Sequence record: MW876471
DNA length: 38,954 nucleotides
Strand: one strand, 5' to 3'
Origin: Escherichia phage P762
Shown: positions 2,534-31,872 of the stretch, piece after piece
Layout of the letters: each line of letters begins with the position of its first letter
Numbering within the stretch: position 1 is the first letter of the stretch
The notes under the pieces: generated by a model
Database searches by the model: none
Seen by the model: only the letters and a program-made list of their open reading frames with translations
What the model was told of the DNA's origin: nothing
Position numbers and translations under genes: made by a program

Positions 2534-2979
2534 ACGTCCTCCTTAGAGATAGTGAATAATTGAAAATGCTCACCAGTTACCGGGCTGATAGTCCAATCAT
2601 CATGGAACTTAGCCCCAAGCAACTTCAAGAATTTAATGTGAGACTTATTGCCTGACCACACGTAGTTCCAGATGGTCCCGTATTGGTCTAACATTAAGTC
2701 CCTGTATCGTGCAATGTGTAGTCCGAACTCTCGCTTCTCAGCCTTGGACAGACGGGAGACAAGACGGGAGGTAACGAACCAGACGTTATCACCTTGGTTT
2801 CCACCATAGGCGTATACTGTCCCCAGAGCATCGACCAAAACCACAGATGACGGAGTGAGGTGAGACATCAGGACAGGCTTCAAGTCTCTCCGTGGGTCAT
2901 TCGCCATCAGCTCATTAACGTCATCTATAGCAATTTCGAAGGACAATACATCCTGTTCAGTAGCTTTACGAATATACAT
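2518..2979 (-). CDS. gp13: internal virion protein gp13
   Basis: 153-aa ORF directly downstream of a phage promoter, in the gene 13 position between gp12 and gp14. Confidence 0.75.
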   Translation of the reverse strand: MYIRKATEQDVLSFEIAIDDVNELMANDPRRDLKPVLMSHLTPSSVVLVDALGTVYAYGGNQGDNVWFVTSRLVSRLSKAEKREFGLHIARYRDLMLDQYGTIWNYVWSGNKSHIKFLKLLGAKFHDDWTISPVTGEHFQLFTISKEDVCVNP

Positions 2980-15284: not shown

Positions 15285-15304
15285 GGTTAATCCTCCGTTT
15301 AGTC

Positions 15305-15345
15305 TAATCATAAAGGCCACTCGATGTGAATGACCTTGAGTCTAG
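15305..15345 (-). promoter_or_regulatory. conserved hairpin, candidate RNase III site (R4.7 position)
   Basis: RNA CUAGACUCAAGGUCAU-loop-GUGGCCUUUAUGAUUAG; 8-bp stem AAGGUCAU/GUGGCCUU; same motif at 22301..22345 and 31831..31872. Confidence 0.5.
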
Positions 15346-18630: not shown

Positions 18631-19082
18631 TACTTAACTCCTTTCTTCTTGGGAATGAGTATGCCTGAAGGCAGACGTACAGTCGCCTCTCGCAGCCACT
18701 CAACCGGGATGAACTTGTCGGCAAACTTAAAGCCGTTCTTTTCGCACCATGCGCCATACGTGGTCGGAGACCCTTTGTATAACTTTGAGCGGGAACTTGA
18801 GAACACGAACCGGATGTCTAACTCTGGGTGCTGTTCTCGTACCAGAAGGTGCTTCTTACGGTCATCACTATCGAAGATACCTTTGGTCTCTACGATGATA
18901 CCGTTAGGAAGGATAAAATCTGGTGTGTACTTGTGGTCGGAAGCCGGAATCACATAGTTGATATAATGGCTTTCGTACTCCGCTTTGACGCCGTTCTGTT
19001 CCAGCCACTGCTGGTTCTTGGCTTCAAGTCCAGAGCGGTAGGCACCCACAGAGTGCCCCCGTTTTGCAGACCATTGGGCCAT
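18630..19082 (-). CDS. gp3: endonuclease I (Holliday junction resolvase) gp3
   Basis: 150 aa; YVIPAS, YTPDF.LPNGI.VETKG, SDDRKKHLL.REQHPELDIR.VFSSSR.KLYKGSPT.YG, KFADK.IP blocks match T7 gp3. Confidence 0.95.
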   Translation of the reverse strand: MAQWSAKRGHSVGAYRSGLEAKNQQWLEQNGVKAEYESHYINYVIPASDHKYTPDFILPNGIIVETKGIFDSDDRKKHLLVREQHPELDIRFVFSSSRSKLYKGSPTTYGAWCEKNGFKFADKFIPVEWLREATVRLPSGILIPKKKGVK

Positions 19083-19780
19083 TAGAAGTCGTAATCGCCA
19101 CCAGAGTTGGAGTCGTCACCACCTTCGGAATCATCGTCACCGAAGTCATCGTCACCGAAGTCACCATCGGTTGACGCTTTGTAGCCCGTACCGAGGTCTT
19201 CATCATCACCCCAGCCACCATCTCCACCAGCACCATCACCTTTCCATTCCTTCAGTTCTACCAGAAGGCAGGACTCAAGCTGGAGCTTAACGCTTGCACC
19301 AGTCGCAGCGTTCCACTTGAACGGCAGGACTTTAAACTTGACCTTCAGTTTGGAGCCAGCGCCAATATTCGGGACGTCACGGATTAACTTAGCATCGGTG
19401 TCGTAGAACCGTAATACGATAGGCTCAGATTTACCATCCTTCAGGTAAGACGCGAAGCATTTAAACTTCAGGGTAACAGTACCGTCACCATTCTCAATCC
19501 ACGGCATGTCGCCTTCTCGTGGTTCAATAGGCTTCTTGCCACGCTGAACCTGAGGTGGGTTCTTCTCGTGGTCTGCGAGTGCTTTCGCATACGCATCGTC
19601 GTGAATCTTCTGTAAGACATCAATCATCTTACGGACCTTCGGGTTGCTCAGGTCGAATGTCAGGTTGACTTTGTGTTCACCACGCTCGTTGAACTTGGTG
19701 TCTGCTTTGTTCAGCCATGCGTAAGGCTCAACGATACCAGCTACCGGAGTGGTGAAAGTCTTCAGTTGCTCTTTAGCCAT
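19082..19780 (-). CDS. gp2.5: single-stranded DNA-binding protein gp2.5
   Basis: 232 aa as T7 gp2.5; RGKKP..P.EGDMP, NGDGT.T.KFKC.AS, GASVKLQLES..LVEL, acidic C-terminal tail ending DF. Confidence 0.95.
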   Translation of the reverse strand: MAKEQLKTFTTPVAGIVEPYAWLNKADTKFNERGEHKVNLTFDLSNPKVRKMIDVLQKIHDDAYAKALADHEKNPPQVQRGKKPIEPREGDMPWIENGDGTVTLKFKCFASYLKDGKSEPIVLRFYDTDAKLIRDVPNIGAGSKLKVKFKVLPFKWNAATGASVKLQLESCLLVELKEWKGDGAGGDGGWGDDEDLGTGYKASTDGDFGDDDFGDDDSEGGDDSNSGGDYDF

Positions 19781-22270: not shown

Positions 22271-22300
22271 GTGGTAGCTCCAGTTGTTTAGGTTATAGGG

Positions 22301-22345
22301 TTAATCATGAAGGCCACGACTTTGAGTCATGACCTTGAGTCTAAT
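22301..22345 (-). promoter_or_regulatory. conserved hairpin, candidate RNase III site (R1.1 position)
   Basis: RNA UUAGACUCAAGGUCAUGA-loop-GUGGCCUUCAUGAUUAA; same stem as the 15305 and 31831 sites. Confidence 0.5.
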
Positions 22346-23132: not shown

Positions 23133-25814
23133 TTAAGCGAATGCAAAGTCTGAAGACAAGATGTCTTCGATATTCAGTTTACCTTTCTTCGGAAGCTCAG
23201 GCAACTTGTCGCGCTGGCTTTCATGAAGCTGGTATTCAAACTGCTCGTAGAAGTCAAGCAGCACATCGTTGTCGCGGTAGGTCTCGACCATTGTCTCACG
23301 GACGCCACGGAACAGATACTCAGCGTCAGCCGGGATGGTCCCGAAGCTATCGTGAATCACTGCGAATGACATCACACCATACTTGTGGTGCGTGTGGACT
23401 ACAGTCTTGCGGAGGTGGCTACCATCTTGTGAGTGGACGAAGTTCGGGCTAATGCCTGACTCCTGCTTGTGCTTGTCCAGCTCTTTCTTCGTGCCTTTGT
23501 TGACTGTAGGCTGAAGGTTGAATGACCCTAAGAACATCAGGTTCAGACGAGTGGTATCCTTCTTGCGGTACTCCTGCCAGACAGGGAAACCATCAGGTGT
23601 GACCCAGTGTACCGGAAGGCAAGGCTTCAGGATTTCTCCAGTCTTCTTGTCTTTCACTTCAGCAGCCAGCAGCTTGGCAGCACCTTGAAGCCACTTCATC
23701 GCGTCAACCGCAGCAACTACGGTCACACTCACAGCTTCCCAAATCATCTTAGCCATGAAGCGGGACGCTTGGCTTGGTTCAGTGAACATAGCGCCAGACC
23801 CTGAGTCAATCGCTGGCATAACGATATCCTCGTAAACTTGGTCTGCGAATCCATACTCTTTCGACCCGTAGGCTAGAGTCATGACCGAACGCTTAGTGAC
23901 CTTGCGTGACATACCGTATGTCAGCCACTGACGGGCCAGCTCTCGTGTTCCCAGCTTGAGACGCTCGGTAATCTCACCAGTCTTCTTGTCCTCGTGAGTC
24001 ACCATCTCGTTGTCCGTACCGTTAACCAGCAGGACTTTAAGCTCCTCCTCAATGCGGTCAGACACAATGCGGTAGATGTCTTGGACCTTACCGGATGGCG
24101 TCAGGTTTACTGCATGTCCACCGATGTGGTCACGAAGCATCGCGCTGAAGTGCTGAATACCAGAGCAGGACCCATCGAACGCTATCGGTAGCGAGCAGGA
24201 GTAAGACAGGCCGTGGTGCATTACGCCAGCATACTCGAAGCAGAACGCGAGGAAACAGAACGGAGAGTCTAACTTGCCCCACCACTCAATACTATCCATC
24301 GGTGCCTTAGCAGTAGCCATAATGTTGTCGTGGTTGTCTTCCACCCACTTGATGCGCTCCTCGAAGGTGACTTTATCGACACCCGCACAGTTTGCACCAT
24401 GGACCTTCAGCCATTTGAAACCATCAGCGCCAATAGGCTTGCCGACTGCCAGAGTCAGGAGACCCTTCTGCATGTCGTTACCTTGAGGGTTAAACATCGG
24501 GACAGCGTAGACACGACCTCGCCAATCCATGTTGTATGGGAACCAGATAGCCTTGAACTGAGAGAACTTGTTCGCTTGGTTAACGATAAAGCTCAGTGAC
24601 AATCTTCGTGACTGTCTGGCCTTCTCGCGGCGATAGATACCAGCAGCAGCTTTCTTCCATGCCTTGAGTTCTTCTTCAGTCTCACCCGCATAATCCTCAG
24701 GCTTCAGTGGTTCCATCTGAGGGATGTCATCAATAGGCGTGTTGTTCAGCTTCTCGACCATGTTCACCACGTCCAGCACCTTCTTGTTCACTTTCCAAGG
24801 CGTATTCTGGATGATGTTAACAGCGTCATAGACTTCAGGCATGTACACGTCTTCGTAACGTGCTACCGCAGACTTAGACCCTAAGCGAATCAGTGGTAAT
24901 GGTCTGCGACCTTTGGCCCAGTACCCACCGCCTACGACACCCGTCCACGGCTTAGGTGGAACGACGCAAGGCTGATAGACCGGTGCAATACCCGCAAGAC
25001 TGAATCCACGTTGTGCCATCTTCTTGACCCAGAAGTCTGACAGGTGGACCATCTCAACGTCAGCCGCTGCATTACCAGCACCGTAACGCTTAAGCTCGAC
25101 CAGTTGTGTAGACTGGATGACAATCTCAAGCATCTTGATGCCAACGTGTACCGCTTCTGTCGGACTCCAAGTTCCCCACGCATCTTCCAGTTGTCCTTGC
25201 TCAAGCATGGATGTCTCAACAGCTTGCATGTAGGCTTTCTTGTAGGATACCCCTGCTCGCTTGTTCAGGTTCTCAGCTATCGCCTTCTTGAAGTGCTCCT
25301 GCTCCTTGTCACGGATGCGACCGAAGCGTATTTCATCCTCAAGTGTGCGACCTATCGCTGAGGCCATAGGTGTAATCGGTATCCCTTCAGGCTTGACCAG
25401 CTTGGATAGGATGACCTTTAGTATGATGACCGCAGCAGACTCGCAAGAGATACGCAGAGAGCGGTCCTTGACGGCCTTCTCTTCAGTGCTCAACATGGTG
25501 AACGCTACGCTTGGACGAGAGGTTGACATCTTCCCGTCTGGACCTTCGTGCCACTCCTTGACGGCTTGCGCAATCTTAGGGACCAGAGTCTGCATCAAAG
25601 GCTTGGCTACCTGATTGTCTGCCAGTTCCCCGCGCTCGGTCTGTCGCTCAAGGTTCTTGATGAAACGTCGCTCGCCTTCAGTGTATGCCTCGTGCTCAAG
25701 CTGAAGCTGTTTGACTGCAAGGTCTTGCCCGTAGTGGTCAGCCAGCAGGTTAAACGGCTCAATGGCGTTCGACACATCAGAGAAGTCGTGTTTGTCAATA
25801 GAGATGACGCTCAT
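23133..25814 (-). CDS. gp1: single-subunit DNA-directed RNA polymerase gp1
   Basis: 893 aa; collinear with T7 RNAP over the whole length (VPPKPWTG, WFPYNMDWRGRVYA, AFCFEYAGV, DGSCSGIQHFSAMLRD, TLAYGSKE, HDSFGT, C-terminal FAFA). Confidence 0.98.
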   Translation of the reverse strand: MSVISIDKHDFSDVSNAIEPFNLLADHYGQDLAVKQLQLEHEAYTEGERRFIKNLERQTERGELADNQVAKPLMQTLVPKIAQAVKEWHEGPDGKMSTSRPSVAFTMLSTEEKAVKDRSLRISCESAAVIILKVILSKLVKPEGIPITPMASAIGRTLEDEIRFGRIRDKEQEHFKKAIAENLNKRAGVSYKKAYMQAVETSMLEQGQLEDAWGTWSPTEAVHVGIKMLEIVIQSTQLVELKRYGAGNAAADVEMVHLSDFWVKKMAQRGFSLAGIAPVYQPCVVPPKPWTGVVGGGYWAKGRRPLPLIRLGSKSAVARYEDVYMPEVYDAVNIIQNTPWKVNKKVLDVVNMVEKLNNTPIDDIPQMEPLKPEDYAGETEEELKAWKKAAAGIYRREKARQSRRLSLSFIVNQANKFSQFKAIWFPYNMDWRGRVYAVPMFNPQGNDMQKGLLTLAVGKPIGADGFKWLKVHGANCAGVDKVTFEERIKWVEDNHDNIMATAKAPMDSIEWWGKLDSPFCFLAFCFEYAGVMHHGLSYSCSLPIAFDGSCSGIQHFSAMLRDHIGGHAVNLTPSGKVQDIYRIVSDRIEEELKVLLVNGTDNEMVTHEDKKTGEITERLKLGTRELARQWLTYGMSRKVTKRSVMTLAYGSKEYGFADQVYEDIVMPAIDSGSGAMFTEPSQASRFMAKMIWEAVSVTVVAAVDAMKWLQGAAKLLAAEVKDKKTGEILKPCLPVHWVTPDGFPVWQEYRKKDTTRLNLMFLGSFNLQPTVNKGTKKELDKHKQESGISPNFVHSQDGSHLRKTVVHTHHKYGVMSFAVIHDSFGTIPADAEYLFRGVRETMVETYRDNDVLLDFYEQFEYQLHESQRDKLPELPKKGKLNIEDILSSDFAFA

Positions 25815-25883
25815 ACTTAAAGTCCTTGTTATTAGTCTTTCACTTAAAGTCTCTTTGGTCTTTCACTTGGAGTCTTAGACCTT

Positions 25884-25906
25884 TAGTCCTATAGTGATAG
25901 TTAAGT
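25884..25906 (-). promoter_or_regulatory. phage RNAP promoter directly upstream of the RNAP gene
   Basis: plus-strand agtcctatagtgatagttaag about 75 nt upstream of the gene 1 ATG. Confidence 0.6.
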
Positions 25907-25911
25907 CAGAA

Positions 25912-26304
25912 TTACTTGCATATCAGTGGGTTAGCGTGCAGATGACTGAAGTCACCGTGAGTCGTGTGCTTGATGGTTGACCGTTGGTCTATCGCCTTCC
26001 AGCCTGAGACCAGAAGTTTACCATCGTCGGTGATTGGTCGTCCACCATACGCCAGCCACATCAGCTCGGACTTATGGCCCTCTGCCATGAGTCGTGCCCG
26101 CAGTACACGGTCGCGCTCCTGCTGTTGACGTGCGGTGTATGACGAGTGGCGATGCACATAATCGGTCTTGTTCCCGGTCTTCTCCCAGTAGTTGCGACCG
26201 CGAGAGTCCGTGCCGACGTACTTCCACTCTACGCCGTTCTTATCAGTGAATGTGCGAAGCGATATGATTGAGTCCATTGCGTGTCCCAGATTTGACATAT
26301 TCAT
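25912..26304 (-). CDS. hypothetical early protein (130 aa) where T7 has the gp0.7 kinase
   Basis: ORF with GGGAG SD; ATG overlaps upstream gene stop (TAATG); no kinase motifs. Confidence 0.7.
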   Translation of the reverse strand: MNMSNLGHAMDSIISLRTFTDKNGVEWKYVGTDSRGRNYWEKTGNKTDYVHRHSSYTARQQQERDRVLRARLMAEGHKSELMWLAYGGRPITDDGKLLVSGWKAIDQRSTIKHTTHGDFSHLHANPLICK

Positions 26305-26501
26305 TACAGTTTGCTCCCAAGTGTTGCTATATCCCAGACGTTCGCTAAGTTACGCGTGAATCGTCCGTTAGGTTGGCGTACAGTCCAGCGACCCAGACTT
26401 ACATGGTTGAATTTGTAGACGTTACGTGCCTTGTTGATGTCTCTCACCAGCACGTAGGCGATAAGTCCATAGCCTAAGATAACCAGAAGTCCCCAGCTCA
26501 T
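26304..26501 (-). CDS. small membrane protein (65 aa, one TM helix)
   Basis: internal ATG (MSWGLLVILGYGLIAYVLV...) used rather than the TTG start of the track ORF at 26606. Confidence 0.55.
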   Translation of the reverse strand: MSWGLLVILGYGLIAYVLVRDINKARNVYKFNHVSLGRWTVRQPNGRFTRNLANVWDIATLGSKL

Positions 26502-26590
26502 TAGAATGACCCTCGCTTGATTGCGTCCAGAAGGCCCCAAGCTATCAGAAAGATGATCGGAGATAAGCACACCCAGTAACCGATATTCAT
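26501..26590 (-). CDS. putative 29-aa hydrophobic peptide
   Basis: MNIGYWVCLSPIIFLIAWGLLDAIKRGSF with AGGAG SD; stop overlaps next ATG. Confidence 0.35.
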   Translation of the reverse strand: MNIGYWVCLSPIIFLIAWGLLDAIKRGSF

Positions 26591-26667
26591 AGTTAACTCC
26601 TATCAATGTAAGTGGTAATCTTTGAGGCCACCTATCAGTTAGATGACCTCTCGTCTATCACTCGCAG

Positions 26668-26793
26668 TTAGTAACCACCTGTCAGCGTTATGGTCAAGCT
26701 CTGGTGATTAGCCACGTAGCAAGCCCCGCGCTTCATCATCTCGTAGCACCCCTCGTAGAACGCCTGTTCACTGCTATAAGTTATCTGGTACAT
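26668..26793 (-). CDS. putative 41-aa early protein
   Basis: MYQITYSSEQAFYEGCYEMMKRGACYVANHQ... with GAGGA SD. Confidence 0.4.
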   Translation of the reverse strand: MYQITYSSEQAFYEGCYEMMKRGACYVANHQSLTITLTGGY

Positions 26794-26794
26794 G

Positions 26795-26941
26795 TTACTT
26801 GTCCTCACTGTCGTGTATGCGCTTGCGGCCCTCGTAGACCGCTTTCAGATGACGCATAGTCGCATCGTGGTTTAACTGCCCGGTCTTGACCATAATCCTG
26901 GCGTTGGTGACGTGGTGCTGGCAGAGACCATAAGTTACCAT
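26795..26941 (-). CDS. putative 48-aa early protein (gene 0.4 position)
   Basis: ATG overlaps ocr stop (ATGA); size and position like T7 gp0.4 but no sequence similarity recognised. Confidence 0.45.
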   Translation of the reverse strand: MVTYGLCQHHVTNARIMVKTGQLNHDATMRHLKAVYEGRKRIHDSEDK

Positions 26942-27273
26942 CACTCGCAGTCCTCTTCAGGCTCGAACCATACCACATCACGGCTATCAGACACATCGTT
27001 ATACAGTGCCTCGTAAATGCGAGCTTGCAGTATGCGCGTTACGTCCTTGGTATCAGGCATCAGCCCAGAGTCTTCGAACTCAATGTCTATACCATCAGCA
27101 GCCATCACCGTGAAAATCTCGTGGTAATAGTGCGGAACCTGACCGTCTACGACCTCATGCAGCGCATCGTGATAATCATCGCCTTCAGTTATTTCGTCGT
27201 ACTGAATGCGATCGTTAAATGCTTCAACAGTTGCAGCCAGCAGCTCATAGTATGCGTTAGCGTTACGTTCCAT
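26941..27273 (-). CDS. ocr: Ocr-like DNA-mimic anti-restriction protein (gene 0.3)
   Basis: acidic 110-aa protein; [41 protein letters not shown] almost identical to T7 Ocr. Confidence 0.93.
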
Positions 27274-27485
27274 AGTTATATCCTCTCAGTTGTTAGTGAC
27301 TATCAGTCAGGGCCTTCAGTCGCTCAAGTCAAGCCCGTCTCGCGGTAGACTCAAAGACCCTGTAGTTAGTCGCTATCGGCGCACATTAAGAGTTTATCCA
27401 GATTGTTAAAGAGCATTCGCGTTGGCTGTCGTCGCCGTGCTATCCCGTTTCAGTGTTGGGACTCACCGTTGTTTCAATGTGGTAC

Positions 27486-27515
27486 AGCTTACATCTTATC
27501 TTTACCGCTTGTCAA
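27486..27515 (-). promoter_or_regulatory. host sigma70-type early promoter (T7 A3-like)
   Basis: minus-strand TTGACA-18 nt-TAAGCT followed by GTACCACAT, as in T7 A2/A3. Confidence 0.6.
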
Positions 27516-27627
27516 CTACTTTCCGTCATCTGCCTGTTTTTCGTATGACTTATCAGGCTGTCTACTTGACCGGGATGACCCGGCGTCTTCACTATCCGGT
27601 GGGTGCCGTGTCGTGTTGACGGAAGCT

Positions 27628-27656
27628 ATTAAGCCATAGTCGAGACTTATAGTCAA
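27628..27656 (-). promoter_or_regulatory. host sigma70-type early promoter (T7 A1-like)
   Basis: minus-strand TTGACTATAAGTCTCGACTATGG-CTTAAT, close to T7 A1. Confidence 0.6.
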
Positions 27657-27808
27657 TAGGTGATTTGAAATTAATATTGATTAAACTATCGTCGGCCCCA
27701 TAGTGACTAAGAGGATATAGTCTTTGACTAACATGTCTTAGACCTTAAGTCTATAGCGTTGTGTCTATTAGCTGTATGTCTCTGACTGTAGGTGTTGGTG
27801 TCTTATGG

Positions 27809-27840
27809 CTGAGACTGTAGGTTGCTGAGACTGTAGGTTG
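27809..27840. repeat. 16-bp tandem direct repeat (ctgagactgtaggttg x2) within an array of short iterated motifs
   Basis: exact tandem duplication; nearby recurrent gactgtaggt, cctatgg and cctatcgt motifs, analogous to the short repeats next to the T7 terminal repeat. Confidence 0.7.
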
Positions 27841-27869
27841 TAGGACCTATGGCTGTTGAGACCTATGGT

Positions 27870-28058
27870 TATACAGATAGAGACTCAGAGACAGACCAAT
27901 AGTCCCAACCTATCGTCCCGACCTCCAGCCATAGCCTCAACCTATCGTTGACCTGAAGTCTTGACCATTGGTCCAACCTTATGATAAACTGGGGTAGGGC
28001 CTTTGGTCTGGACTGAAAGAGGGCCTATGGGGAGACTTGAGGTTCTTGAACTGTGAGA
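27870..28058 (-). repeat. predicted direct terminal repeat of the linear genome, single collapsed copy; left genome end near 28058
   Basis: minus strand from ~28058 reads TCTCACAGTTCAAGAACCTCAAGTCTCCCCATAGGCCC, homologous to the first bases of the T7 terminal repeat; boundaries inferred only. Confidence 0.45.
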
Positions 28059-28304
28059 TGTGGTCTCAAACTTTTGGTCCAAAACTCATCGTCCCTCCTT
28101 AGGAGCCAGCTACTGTAGGTCAAGGACCGTAGGTCTAAGACCATCGGATGACGACCAGTGAACCAATCAGTAGGTAGACCAGAAGTGAGAGCCTGAATGG
28201 TGTTACCTAAAGTCCTTGACTACAGTAGCTAAGGTCAGTAGAGTGAGTCTTTATCCACGTACTGACCTTAGGTCTTCCGCTCATGAATCGTTACCATGAT
28301 TGCG

Positions 28305-28463
28305 TTAATTACACTGAGACACCAGAGAACATACGAGAGTCTCGACCCACCCGACCCACTGACTTCCAGCAGTAACGCCAGCAGCAAGTAGAACAGCAGC
28401 AAGAAACCTGTATGTAGATCGATTGGTCGCCAGAGCTTTAAGTACAGCTTTGGTCTTTGCCAT
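28305..28463 (-). CDS. gp19.5-position small membrane protein (52 aa)
   Basis: AGGAGG SD; MAKTKAVLKALATNRSTYRFLAAVLLAAGVTAGSQWVGWV..., last gene before the genome end. Confidence 0.5.
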   Translation of the reverse strand: MAKTKAVLKALATNRSTYRFLAAVLLAAGVTAGSQWVGWVETLVCSLVSQCN

Positions 28464-28643
28464 ATGCTACATACCTCCTGTATCTATGGTCGGTGACTAT
28501 CTGTATTGGAGGGATTATGATTAATATCACCATCCTTCCATCGGTGCAAGCCTTAGGTAAGAACTCGGAGTCTGCCTCCTAAGGTCTTGCATAAAGTCTG
28601 CATATGTATATTCACTACAGTAATACTATAAGTAACCGGGGGT

Positions 28644-28666
28644 CTTCCCTATAGTGATAGTTAAGT
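28644..28666 (-). promoter_or_regulatory. phage RNAP promoter (phiOR position, after the terminase gene)
   Basis: plus-strand ttccctatagtgatagttaag. Confidence 0.75.
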
Positions 28667-28760
28667 CCAAACTCCTTGTAAAACAGTAGGTTAGACTGGT
28701 AGTAACTATAGGTTACTAACCGCGTATTAATGCAGTTTTCACCCATAGTTATTCATACAG

Positions 28761-30536: not shown

Positions 30537-31328
30537 TTATACGTTAAAGATTCGGTCTACACGTACTGTAAGCGATGATAACGTTAGGTCTTCTGACCCA
30601 GTAACGATGATACCAAGCATGATGCCAGTTTCTACAAACGGGTCGTCCGAATCAGCGATGTAGCTGTGGATAGCTGATTCACGGATGGTGAAGAGCTTCT
30701 GGTCAGATGTATCCGTAACAGACGATAAGGTCGTATTATCTGGGCGACGAAGCTGCACTCTCCATTTATGAGACGTTTCTGTAGGGAATTCACCAGCGAA
30801 TCGAACTACGAAGTTTACACCACTTAGCCCCTCTTTAGCTGGGAATATCATCTTTCCGTCTGAGATAGTCACAACACCGCTGTTAACTCCCCTAACTAAA
30901 GGTAGAGTCATTAGGTTAGTGAACTGTCCAGCCGTACACACTTGAGTCCCTGACCAATTGAATGTGTCTAGAGAATACTCAGCGTGAGAGACAGGACGCG
31001 ATTCTCGATAGGTATACTCCACCTTAACCAGCCCGATTCCACTATCATCCAGCTTGGCGACCTTAAGAATTAGGAAACCATCTTCAGTAGCCCCATCAAC
31101 TTCCAGACGCACACTTTCTGTCTGTAAGGGCCAGCCTCCACCATCGGAGAAATTACCAGTAGTAGACGTACCGTCGCTTAGTGTAATTTTAGTAGACTCA
31201 GCGTTAGCTGGGACCTTCACGTATATTGTTCCAGCCAATAAGTGACCGGATGGGTTCTTCAATCCAGTTGGTGCTCCAGTCACAAAGTGCCACACCACGT
31301 CAGTTTTCAAAGTAATGATGTTACCCAT
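30537..31328 (-). CDS. hypothetical protein (263 aa) inserted between Rz/Rz1 and large terminase
   Basis: AAGGAG SD; start overlaps Rz stop; beta-rich, Gly/Thr/Ser/Val-rich; T7 has no gene here. Confidence 0.8.
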   Translation of the reverse strand: MGNIITLKTDVVWHFVTGAPTGLKNPSGHLLAGTIYVKVPANAESTKITLSDGTSTTGNFSDGGGWPLQTESVRLEVDGATEDGFLILKVAKLDDSGIGLVKVEYTYRESRPVSHAEYSLDTFNWSGTQVCTAGQFTNLMTLPLVRGVNSGVVTISDGKMIFPAKEGLSGVNFVVRFAGEFPTETSHKWRVQLRRPDNTTLSSVTDTSDQKLFTIRESAIHSYIADSDDPFVETGIMLGIIVTGSEDLTLSSLTVRVDRIFNV

Positions 31329-31773
31329 TGTCGTTCTCCTTGCCTTGTTGAAGTTTGCGAATAGTATCCTGTAGTGCTTTAATCCAAGCGTCCCCTTTTA
31401 GTCCGATGGCGATAAGACGTTTAGCATCTCGTTCGTCAAGTTCGGCGTAACCATCAATGATGCATCGACCGTCACTTTGCGTGGCTCCACTCGTAGGTTT
31501 GACTCGGATGCGCAGCCGCTTATTGTCAGACTGAAGGTCAGCAATAATCCTATCAGTGCTGCCTTCCAGCGAGGACATTTCGTCCTGAAACCGTTTGGAC
31601 ACTTTGTTGACTTCAGCTTGGACAGCAAGCCTTGTATCTTCCGATGCCTTAAGATTCGAGGTGTATTCTGCATTGACCTTAGCCTCCCACTTATTGTTAG
31701 CGGTGTGGTAGCCCCCAGCAAACATCACTGCTGCGAGTAACCACGGAGCCGCTCTCTTTAGAAATTCGAGCAT
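31321..31773 (-). CDS. gp18.5: Rz-like i-spanin (gp18.5)
   Basis: 150 aa, N-terminal TM segment then coiled-coil periplasmic domain; position after small terminase. Confidence 0.8.
   Translation of the reverse strand: MLEFLKRAAPWLLAAVMFAGGYHTANNKWEAKVNAEYTSNLKASEDTRLAVQAEVNKVSKRFQDEMSSLEGSTDRIIADLQSDNKRLRIRVKPTSGATQSDGRCIIDGYAELDERDAKRLIAIGLKGDAWIKALQDTIRKLQQGKENDNG
31398..31560 (-). CDS. Rz1-like o-spanin embedded in Rz in another frame (gp18.7), start uncertain
   Basis: embedded frame encodes ..ALIGLLLTFSLTISGCASES..: lipoprotein signal with lipobox-like I-S-G-C; no in-frame ATG nearby. Confidence 0.45.
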
Positions 31774-31830
31774 AGGCGCCCTCCCGGTTTATCAGATTTC
31801 ACGTAGAGTCTCCTCCACTAGTTAGTGTTA

Positions 31831-31872
31831 ACCATAAAGGCCACTACATACAGTAATGACCTTGAGTCTAAC
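31831..31872 (-). promoter_or_regulatory. conserved hairpin, candidate RNase III site (R18.5 position)
   Basis: RNA GUUAGACUCAAGGUCAU-loop-GUGGCCUUUAUGGUU, same stem as the other two sites. Confidence 0.5.

Follow-up and report, generated by a model that had tools for sequence, protein, structure and literature searches.

The window analysed here, that is, the whole 38,954-nt stretch of DNA from Escherichia phage P762 (MW876471), is a complete Kayfunavirus genome in permuted and reverse-complemented form. All of its genes are on the minus strand, as are the promoter, leader, repeats and polymerase gene that form the subject of this analysis. Positions 25815..25911 correspond exactly to the gap between the stop codon of an upstream early ORF (25914-25912) and the ATG of gene 1, which encodes the single-subunit RNA polymerase (RNAP). 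The gene 1 product matches Pfam PF00940 at E=1e-106, and also PF14700, and it shares 93-99% identity with the polymerases of Kayfunavirus loci of types A and C, and 88-89% with those of type B. No Pfam domain was found in the upstream, gp0.38-like ORF. An indel in this upstream gene, and not the leader, is the cause of BLAST matches having 84% coverage. The window also encodes a lysozyme/amidase homologue (Pfam) and a gp2-like ORF. Coordinates of the features are collected in Table 1.

Table 1. Features in and around the gap upstream of gene 1 (window coordinates).
Feature	Position	Strand	Remarks
Gene 1, single-subunit RNA polymerase, 893 aa	23133..25814	-	Pfam PF00940, PF14700
Upstream early ORF, gp0.38-like, 130 aa	25912..26304	-	Stop codon at promoter positions -25..-23
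Phage promoter phi1 (K1F-type single-subunit RNAP), -17..+6, ACTTAACTATCACTATAGGACTA	25906..25884	-	Core match; annotation in relatives; loop covariation
75-nt leader, predicted 5'UTR of phi1 transcripts	25815..25889	-	Degenerate tandem units of ~11-14 nt (GACTnnAAGnnnAAGACy)
Repeat copy 1, AGACTCCAAGTGAAAGACCAA	25855..25875	-	Exact 11-mer AAGTGAAAGAC at 25868-25858; contains AGACUCCAAG
Repeat copy 2, AGACTTTAAGTGAAAGACTAA	25832..25852	-	Exact 11-mer at 25845-25835
Near-palindromic 10-mer GACTTTAAGT, upstream copy	25842..25851	-	Second 10-nt repeat
Translation initiation region: Shine-Dalgarno AAGGA (25827-25823) and second GACTTTAAGT (25824-25815)	25815..25827	-	Abuts ATG
GGUCU, 5' arm of a small hairpin, the sole one predicted consistently	25877..25881	-	3' arm AGACC at 25861-25857, within repeat copy 1

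A first-pass annotation of this DNA had reported a phage promoter of consensus type some 75 nt ahead of the RNAP start codon, and our analysis bears this out. The promoter, phi1, is a perfect family copy (25906-25884) on the gene-sense strand; it begins 5 nt past the stop codon of the upstream ORF, and its predicted +1, G25889, leaves a leader of 75 nt to the RNAP start codon (25814). Its 15-nt core, ACTATCACTATAGGA, occurs in four exact copies in the window (phi1 and three other promoters). When up to three mismatches were allowed, there were 12 core matches as opposed to 1.04 expected, a count reached in 0/100 shuffles. Eleven of these 12 matches are on the minus strand and align as a 23-bp promoter family, seven members of which share the -13..-1 segment of phi1 (AACTATCACTATA), and the bases of phi1 at the variable positions -17..-14 are also found in other members. 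With its match to the 23-bp family, the core CACTATAGG and a G at +1, phi1 is by sequence a K1F-class promoter and a bona fide member of this phage's own promoter family. The 11 same-strand promoters equal in number the "phi" promoters annotated in EcoDS1, the leftmost of which has the homologous location, immediately before gene 1. In the present phage, phi1 is likewise the leftmost phage promoter, ~2.2 kb from the left end. Its initially transcribed sequence is GGA..., as at this phage's early and DNA-metabolism gene promoters, while most of the virion-gene promoters start with GGG....

The phi1 element is already known from other phages. The "phi" promoter at 2244-2266 of Escherichia phage EcoDS1 (EU734172) is the same element at the homologous site, and the two 23-bp sequences differ only at +6, where EcoDS1 and nearly all other relatives have C and the window has A. 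The same element is annotated as "predicted promoter" upstream of gene 1 in the Citrobacter phages CR44b (NC_023576) and CR8 (NC_023548, Caroctavirus), and Pseudomonas phage gh-1 (NC_004665, Ghunavirus) has an equivalent; K1F contains the element, unannotated in its record. Although the leaders of EcoDS1, CR44b and CR8 carry the same repeats as the window, only the promoter is annotated in these records. In the PE3-1 record the same 23 bp are labelled "host RNAP promoter", which is probably a mis-annotation. We rejected a host sigma-70 promoter at this site, as a minus-strand scan gave no match there and no good -35/-10 pair was seen by eye. A literature search for Kayfunavirus transcript 5' ends, in vitro transcription or reporter activity, which did not extend to the K1F genome paper, found none; pairing of the K1F loop with its promoter is in use in synthetic biology (mentioned in PMC11880802).

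The leader that follows phi1 is 36% G+C and 44% A, in a genome of 50% G+C. The first-pass annotation had also described an 11-nt direct repeat in it (gtctttcactt on the plus strand), and both copies are located precisely as claimed, at 25835-25845 and 25858-25868. When the leader was dinucleotide-shuffled 20,000 times, 0.45% of the shuffles contained an exact direct repeat of 11 nt or more (P = 0.0045), and only five such local repeats (spacing of 60 nt or less) occur across the whole 39-kb window. The repeat extends to 21 nt, 18/21 of which are identical (86%; 25832-25852 and 25855-25875, spacing 23). Since it does so, the element AGACUCCAAG (25875-25866) is the left end of repeat copy 1 and not a separate element. 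Judged by its sequence, the 11-nt repeat is units 1 and 3 of a tandem array with a period of ~11.5 nt, which is also present in Ghunavirus leaders. Tandem Repeats Finder reported nothing in the leader at a score of at least 30, since the units are too degenerate. A search of the whole window against Rfam gave no match at gathering score, and the region itself gave only noise-level snoRNA matches (E ~5).

Other elements of the leader were also considered. There are only three copies of GACTTTAAG on the coding strand of the window, two of them in the leader, which rules it out as a genome-wide ribosome-site motif. The last 14 nt of the leader, GGACTTTAAGTATG, are identical to the translation initiation region of T7 gene 1.1. 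The GTG in each repeat copy could open a small upstream ORF; these ORFs were rejected, as they lack a convincing Shine-Dalgarno sequence and are not kept in type B. Folding of the phi1 transcript gave z = -0.1 to -0.3 relative to shuffles, indicating that the leader is not significantly structured; the GGUCU/AGACC hairpin displays no covariation because its pairs are invariant. An unstructured "enhancer" leader would not obviously account for the near-invariance of every leader nucleotide or the 11-nt identity of the two units.

The promoter-leader module was identified in 218 Kayfunavirus records of GenBank (identity of at least 95% in 172), and no Kayfunavirus/Caroctavirus locus extending into the upstream region lacks it (20 loci from IMG/VR together with K1F, EcoDS1, PE3-1, LM33_P1, ST64, CR44b and others). 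Its position relative to gene 1 is -75/-76 in types A and B, -81 in type C and -102 in CR8. By clade, it occurs in Kayfunavirus, Caroctavirus and Ghunavirus, and is absent from T7-, T3- and K11-like relatives. Among 18 type-A genomes, nucleotide diversity was 0.005 in the promoter, 0.012 in the leader and 0.000 in both repeat copies, whereas third codon positions in the neighbouring genes gave 0.10-0.14; the module is thus ~10-fold more conserved than synonymous sites. Repeat copy 1 is invariant in type A and degenerate in type-B relatives (CAGTTTAAAGACC), and AAGTGAAAGACT of repeat copy 2 is kept in types A and B and shifted in position in type C, where the repeat units are rearranged.

The promoter also changes together with the polymerase. 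A polymerase loop of TRLNL..GSFNLQP accompanies the promoter AACTATCACTA in types A and C, TRLDL..GTFRLQP accompanies AAACCCTCACTATAGG in type B, and TRIKL..VQYRP accompanies GGTACACTATAGG in CR8, and in each of these three specificity classes the promoter upstream of gene 1 is the same as the one downstream of it. Since phi1 changes with the specificity loop and with the other phage promoters, these results provide strong comparative evidence that it is used. They also bear on the possibility that the region is functionless, consisting of a promoter-like remnant and a duplication produced by slippage. Short A-rich sequences do repeat easily as a general matter; however, the number of promoter matches and the 11-nt repeat both exceed what shuffled sequences yield (0/100 and P = 0.0045, respectively), the leader is ~10-fold more conserved than synonymous sites, and the promoter covaries with polymerase specificity. 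A chance or neutral origin is therefore effectively refuted, and we assign it a negligible probability. The promoter-leader feature is real and, to judge from these comparisons, probably functional.

Considering both its family membership and the comparative evidence of use, self-transcription of gene 1 is the natural inference. The explanation that we favor, and consider probable, is that phi1 is the leftmost cognate promoter and drives the polymerase's own gene in a self-amplifying loop, with the constrained, A-rich leader acting on RNA. By homology to the EcoDS1 annotation, host RNA polymerase would make the first gene 1 mRNA from sigma-70-type early promoters near the left end; sequences homologous to two host promoters annotated in EcoDS1 are found at ~27656-27628 and 27515-27486, where a simple sigma-70 scan made no calls. 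The first phage polymerase would then initiate at G25889 and transcribe its own gene and those downstream, as promoter identity, conservation and covariation suggest, and the resulting loop would amplify itself with no further need of the host enzyme. The cognate promoter stands directly before the polymerase gene, the 75-nt leader intervenes with no terminator, and no intrinsic-terminator-like sites were detected in 25500-28760. Since phi1 has the GGA... start, rather than the GGG... of most virion promoters, it is expected to be of moderate strength, and T7 biology suggests that the loop would later be damped by the lysozyme/amidase homologue. The leader would be a constrained, A-rich, weakly structured 5'UTR composed of degenerate ~11.5-nt tandem units, and most likely acts at the RNA level, on ribosome loading or on the behaviour of gene 1 mRNA; this is the least secure step of the proposed mechanism.

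The first-pass annotation had contrasted this arrangement with T7, whose gene 1 it took to be transcribed only by host RNAP. That statement stands as a textbook simplification, but it is not absolute, since T7 phiOL precedes gene 1 and points the same way, and phiOL-type promoter sequences are found 1-1.4 kb upstream of gene 1 in several relatives. In 1991, Dubendorff and Studier reportedly engineered a T7 "autogene", in which the T7 RNAP gene was under a T7 promoter. The circuit logic is the same, but the T7 autogene is artificial, whereas the arrangement described here is natural and conserved genus-wide. The autogene concept is also found in PMC6395690. If phi1 is active, K1F-type phages would embody the T7 autogene in natural form, their polymerase synthesis would become independent of the host enzyme once the first molecules exist, and the timing logic of the early-to-middle switch would be altered relative to T7.

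A positive-feedback model for an RNAP promoter has already been published for Pseudomonas phage LUZ100, which likewise has a phage-specific promoter, phi1, directly upstream of its RNAP gene and in which the phi1 start site was mapped by ONT-cappable-seq (PMC10134795). The LUZ100 loop differs in having a MarR-like repressor as its proposed gate and in coming with temperate features (PMC10134795); no such module is present in the window, where the loop is predicted from sequence. Since both the idea and the annotation exist (EcoDS1, CR44b, CR8, gh-1 and LUZ100), our finding mainly re-identifies a known feature. What is added here is the covariation argument for selection on the promoter, its distribution among clades, the strong constraint on the whole leader, and a tandem-unit architecture that recurs across genera. 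An active phi1 would also be relevant to the use of K1F-type polymerase/promoter pairs as orthogonal parts and to the engineering of K1F therapeutic phages.

In T7, the R1 RNase III site is situated just before gene 1. The leader might therefore be the counterpart of R1, cut in host-polymerase read-through transcripts to free gene 1 mRNA. It resembles the T7 R1/R1.1 sites in its position and in the 5'-arm motif GACUCAAGGUC. In the structure that this would entail, UCACU of the promoter core pairs with AGUGA of repeat copy 2, followed by AGG/CUU, CUC/GAG and GGUCU/AGACC, the helices together making up an irregular hairpin of ~16 bp. Folding predicts such a hairpin for types A and B, with 93.8% of alignment cells paired as against 25-52% when the partner is slid, and in type C there is a perfect 10-bp stem (AUCACUAAAG/CUUUAGUGAU) in which a T>A change at promoter position -2 is accompanied by an altered partner. 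The resemblance to putative RNase III sites noted in the first-pass annotation concerned AGACUCCAAG, and it holds for the 5'-arm motif only; the 3' arm, GGCCUUUAUGAUU, is missing, and the element is part of repeat copy 1. A better match is GACTAAAGGTC at +2..+12 (25888-25878), with one mismatch to GACTCAAGGTC. Set against the 5'-arm pattern (A)GACUCAAGGUC, the sequence at 25888-25878 (GACUAAAGGUC) has a single mismatch here and is exact in nearly all relatives.

However, the clear hairpins of this type in the window (~15342, 22341 and 31868) have both an upper stem of 10-12 bp and GGCCUUUAUGAUU, and the leader has neither, its upper stem being just 5 bp. Folding energies were no better than those of shuffles (z = -0.03 to -1.5), compensatory changes were found in 0 pairs, and the pairing of promoter to leader is not kept in CR8. 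In addition, the two repeat copies have different roles in the model, and so their identity is left unexplained. Because the 3' arm is missing, folding is not significant and there are no compensatory pairs, a canonical RNase III site in the leader is rejected. In contrast to T7 R1/R1.1, the leader lacks both a long upper stem and a conserved 3' arm and has neither thermodynamic nor covariation support, and we regard a functional counterpart of R1 as quite improbable.

Selection on the promoter need not concern gene 1 expression, since replication of T7-type phages can originate where a polymerase promoter precedes A+T-rich DNA (PMC8373140). Phi1 and its A+T-rich, purine-rich leader may accordingly serve primarily at the DNA level, as an origin of the T7 type at which promoter transcripts prime adjacent DNA synthesis. 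In an added or alternative form, phi1 would be where the phage polymerase first engages the incoming genome and takes charge of drawing it into the cell. Transcription of gene 1 from phi1 would in these cases be incidental, and either form is compatible with the autogene explanation. A T7 promoter is required by every T7 origin; the primary origins, phi1.1A and phi1.1B, adjoin gene 1, and the secondary ones include phi6.5 and phiOR (PMC8373140). The present locus has a phage promoter followed by an A+T-rich segment (36% versus 50% G+C), and of the 11 promoters in the window only phi1, phi6.5 and phi13 precede such DNA; the promoter downstream of gene 1 (22347) precedes an R1.1-like hairpin without an A+T-rich stretch. 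Phi1 is also the leftmost phage promoter, close to the left end.

The leader shows further likeness to the T7 phi1.1A/phi1.1B module: both have a promoter by gene 1, an A+T-rich leader with TTAAG-type units and an identical GGACTTTAAGTATG. Genome-wide, this leader and the T7 leader between phi1.1B and gene 1.1 are each other's best match (score 58, versus 20.7 +/- 4.0 for shuffles), and one canonical T7 primase site, TGGTC, occurs in repeat copy 1 (25856-25860, plus strand; the site is defined as 5'-(G/T)(G/T)GTC in PMC12839067). However, the T7 module follows gene 1 and serves to express genes 1.1/1.2, and the similarity beyond the ribosome-binding region is not significant: without the shared 14-16 nt of this region, the best T7 match lies elsewhere. 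Homology of the leader to the T7 phi1.1B/gene 1.1 leader was thus rejected as anything beyond a weak lead. Furthermore, ~0.45 primase-type sites per 75 nt would be expected by chance, A+T-richness and short TTAAG-type units occur in several leaders, and no mapped origin in any Kayfunavirus was found in the literature. Therefore, a primarily DNA-level role is a possible but unlikely explanation for the module.

The repeat units themselves (two 21-nt copies, 23 nt apart) could conceivably be protein binding sites that control the self-amplifying loop, recognized on DNA or mRNA by a host factor or by a phage protein, whether the polymerase or a different one. Consistent with this, both copies are invariant in the 18 type-A genomes and the repeat is non-random relative to shuffles. 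For temperate T7-like phages, it has been proposed that MarR sites flank the promoter ahead of the RNAP gene (PMC10134795). A further comparison is with gh-1, in which a consensus phage promoter annotated as "phi1" lies ~100 nt upstream of the RNAP gene, an arrangement kept in Ghunavirus-like contigs. Its gene 1 leader has an exact 11-nt direct repeat with 23-nt spacing that ends in AAAGAC, at a near-equal distance from +1, and forms an array of three units, the first and third of which are 23 nt apart. Relatives of gh-1 have related arrays of 2-3 units with a period of ~12 nt, and all of these arrays, that of gh-1 included, share AAAGA(C/T).

Nevertheless, copies and spacing are not kept across the relatives of the window as would be expected of iterons or operators, since type B has a degenerate copy 1 and type C a different arrangement of the units. 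Even at 100% RNAP identity to gh-1, one phage has a repeat of only 8 nt, and no candidate regulator gene is evident by Pfam. The gh-1 module also differs in promoter specificity (AAAAACCCTCACTGTGGCT) and in having CTTAAAG/CTTTAAG near-palindromic units within a significant hairpin, whereas the type-A leader is not significantly structured. In single-sequence folds of Ghunavirus leaders, these units pair together within the hairpin (z = -2.3 to -3.6), which points to structure rather than to protein sites. We therefore consider binding sites to be a very unlikely explanation of the repeats.

A broader proposal is that the ~11.5-nt array following phi1 in Kayfunavirus, Caroctavirus and Ghunavirus is an undescribed control element of natural polymerase autogenes, either an operator or RNA element that would limit or time polymerase synthesis, or the priming zone of an origin coupled to gene 1. 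This is a doubtful suggestion that we put forward as speculation. In both the window and gh-1, units 1 and 3 of the array are 23 nt apart and have AAAGAC in common.

The open reading frames of the window all lie, where long, on the minus strand, and comparison with EcoDS1 mapped the physical genome ends to about 28058 (the left end) and 27879, with the terminal repeat between them collapsed, which makes the window a complete genome, circularly permuted and in reverse complement. The 1-kb region around phi1, the predicted phage-polymerase promoter upstream of gene 1 (RNA polymerase), and its leader was 94-96% identical to Kayfunavirus phages (EcoDS1, PE3-1, and K1F relatives), and the leader was 100% identical to that of Escherichia phage vB_EcoP_LNA5. 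The span singled out in the first-pass annotation is exactly the gap between the upstream early ORF and the polymerase gene, and the consensus phage promoter proposed ~75 nt before the polymerase start codon was confirmed as a family match: read on the minus strand it is ACTTAACTATCACTATAGGACTA, with a predicted +1 at G25889 and thus a 75-nt leader. The promoter core had 12 matches at ≤3 mismatches in the window (1.04 expected; no shuffle gave 12), and the 11 on the gene strand align as a 23-bp family, MCTWAACTATCACTATAGG. EcoDS1 likewise carries 11 "phi" annotations.

Features of the phi1 region, the window, and the compared phages
Feature	Position	Strand	Remarks
phi1 promoter	25906-25884	minus	
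Upstream early ORF stop codon	25914-25912	minus	read from sequence
Gene 1 leader	25815..25889	minus	
Repeat copy 1	25855-25875	minus	
Repeat copy 2	25832-25852	minus	
Polymerase ATG	25814	minus	read from sequence
Single-subunit RNA polymerase, 893 aa	23133..25814	minus	PF00940 (E=1e-106), PF14700
R1.1-like hairpin	~15342 (15300-15345)	minus	UAGACUCAAGGUCAU...GUGGCCUUUAUGAUUA
R1.1-like hairpin	~22341 (22290-22345)	minus	UAGACUCAAGGUCAU...GUGGCCUUUAUGAUUA
R1.1-like hairpin	~31868 (31820-31870)	minus	UAGACUCAAGGUCAU...GUGGCCUUUAUGAUUA
Decayed promoter-like sequence	~27737-27765	minus	GCTATAG-ACTTAAGGTCTAAGAC
Collapsed terminal repeat	~27879-28058		
17-nt unit, two copies	27808/27824		GCTGAGACTGTAGGTTG
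Direct repeat	27906/27938		CAACCTATCGT
18-nt exact tandem duplication	19131-19163 (plus-strand coordinates)		TCATCGTCACCGAAGTCA; inside minus ORF 19082-19780
Type A/C promoter			AACTATCACTA(T/A)AGG
Type B promoter			AAACCCTCACTATAGG; Cronobacter GW1, Shigella SFP21B
CR8 promoter			GGTACACTATAGG
PE3-1 23-bp promoter (L002, KJ748011)	2874-2896		
Ghunavirus gene 1 leaders	L097 (gh-1) 956-1060; L098-L103		
EcoDS1 phi promoters			upstream of gene 1; within gene 1.05-1.1 cluster; phi1.6; phi2.5; upstream of gene 4; phi6.5; phi9; upstream of gene 10A; phi13; phi17; phiOR

Among 80 contigs encoding polymerase relatives, every Kayfunavirus-like locus covering the upstream region (polymerase identity ≥88%) had a promoter 75-81 nt upstream of gene 1, and Citrobacter phage CR8 (79%; genus Caroctavirus) had one at -102. 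No promoter was found within 1.5 kb upstream of gene 1 in T7-like (63%) and K11-like (58-59%) loci, where the first lies 23-31 nt downstream of the gene; other divergent loci had only phiOL-type copies about 1-1.4 kb upstream. Three lineages showed three promoter specificities, and within each the copy upstream of gene 1 was the same as the downstream copy, while the polymerase specificity loop varied in step (N/N, D/R, and K-type residues at the equivalents of T7 748/756). Since the site tracks polymerase specificity through three changes, it is under selection for recognition, and the comparative evidence indicates that phi1 is in use. Nucleotide diversity in 18 type-A genomes (the window's lineage) was 0.005 in the promoter, 0.012 in the leader, and zero in both repeat copies; at third codon positions of the flanking genes it was 0.10-0.14. 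Promoter-like copies also occur in the early regions of two non-Kayfunavirus contigs: in L039, which is T3-like, at -617..-629 from gene 1 (ATCACCCTCACTAAAGGGAAT, downstream promoter TAACCCTCACTAACGGGAGA), and in L026 at -776, where 14 nt, TCACTATCAGGGAC, exactly match the first promoter downstream. In both, the phage polymerase may likewise transcribe into gene 1.

Annotations of this element already exist in Kayfunavirus and beyond: EcoDS1 lists these 23 bp as a "phi" promoter and the CR44b and CR8 records as a "predicted promoter", K1F has the identical promoter-leader module, and a 2026 Kayfunavirus paper lists the 18-bp promoter repeat at the 3' terminus of the gene that comes before that for the polymerase (PMC13298934). 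The PE3-1 record calls it a "host RNAP promoter", a mislabel, as its sequence is that of a phage-polymerase promoter. The gh-1 record places "phi1; putative gh-1 RNAP promoter", matching gh-1 phi4, ~100 nt upstream of the polymerase gene, and in LUZ100 a phage-specific start site was mapped directly upstream of the polymerase gene and a positive-feedback model drawn (PMC10134795). The suggestion of positive autoregulation is therefore sound but not new, and is partly supported by the comparative evidence and the LUZ100 precedent; its premise that T7 gene 1 is transcribed by host RNAP only is slightly too strong, since T7 phiOL precedes gene 1 and points the same way.

The leader does contain gtctttcactt twice (25835-25845 and 25858-25868). 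When the leader was dinucleotide-shuffled, only 0.45% of the shuffles contained an exact repeat of ≥11 nt, and only five such local repeats occur in the whole genome. The 11-mer extends to 21 nt (18/21 identical, spacing 23), so that the element AGACUCCAAG noted earlier is simply the left end of copy 1; the 21-nt repeat is in turn part of four degenerate 18-nt units, GACTnnAAGnnnAAGACy. Another repeat, of 10 nt (GACTTTAAGT), occurs mid-leader and in the ribosome-binding region. When types A, B, and C were aligned, three units of about 11-13 nt emerged in a row: type A has a degenerate unit 2 between identical units 1 and 3, in type C the perfect unit is unit 2, and in type B the degenerate unit is unit 1. 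Like the window, gh-1 has an exact 11-nt repeat in its gene 1 leader (ATCTTAAAGAC, twice, 23 nt apart), at +25/+48 versus +22/+45, with AAAGAC common to both. All Ghunavirus-like contigs have phi1 followed by 2-3 yCTTAAAGAyC units with a period of ~12 nt, making the tandem-unit leader a recurrent companion of phi1 promoters. The Ghunavirus units are near-palindromic and base-pair within a significant hairpin (z = -2.3 to -3.6 in three relatives; a similar, weaker stem in gh-1, z = -1.9), whose enclosing stems vary compensatorily by lineage (CUCAGAG/CUCUGAG vs CUCUGAG/CUCAGAG).

The resemblance to RNase III sites held only for a 5'-arm motif at +2..+12; the leader has neither the long upper stem nor the 3' arm of the window's R1.1-like hairpins. 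In read-through transcripts, UCACU of the promoter core is predicted to form a hairpin with AGUGA in repeat copy 2, but the z-scores of this hairpin were only -0.03 to -1.5, and although 93.8% of cells pair across 14 distinct leaders, no pair showed a compensatory change. For these reasons the leader was not filed as an RNase III site. The perfect 10-bp version in type C phages, with a -2 T>A promoter change, is a hint of this hairpin rather than proof. Position 25884 (+6) is A in the window and LNA5 and C in 17 of the 18 type-A genomes; the A costs the predicted hairpin one C-G pair of its CUC/GAG helix (-16.0 vs -18.4 kcal/mol). RNA initiated at phi1 showed no more structure than its shuffles did (z = -0.1 to -0.3). 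Because the leader is A-rich and unstructured, with an initiation region identical to that of T7 gene 1.1, we favor a role at the RNA level, in which it would act in the translation or behavior of gene 1 mRNA. A serious and non-exclusive alternative is that leader and phi1 form a replication origin, since T7 origins consist of promoters followed by A+T-rich DNA (PMC8373140) and only phi1, phi6.5, and phi13 in the window have ~35% G+C directly after the promoter; however, the apparent homology to the T7 phi1.1B leader rests on the shared ribosome-binding region, and the lone primase site in the leader is expected by chance.

Three clear RNase III-type hairpins resembling T7 R1.1 occur elsewhere in the window, one shortly before the DNA polymerase gene, one shortly after the 22347 promoter, and the third upstream of a 150-aa ORF (31321-31773); the motif GACTCAAGGTC is enriched (47 matches at ≤2 mismatches vs 14.8 expected). 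Near the left genome end, at the position of T7 phiOL, a decayed promoter-like sequence has the 12-mer AAGGTCTAAGAC and flanks in common with the phi1 transcript start (CTATAGGACTAAAGGTCTAAGAC). It is shared with CR44b (L094, about 320-350) but was not detected in EcoDS1, K1F, or PE3-1, and could be what is left of phiOL or a paralogue of phi1. Two short repeats in the 27800-27945 stretch, GCTGAGACTGTAGGTTG and CAACCTATCGT, adjoin the collapsed terminal repeat, and the TCATCGTCACCGAAGTCA duplication, close to the 3' end of the gene for the gp2.5-like ssDNA-binding protein, presumably copies part of the protein's C-terminal tail.
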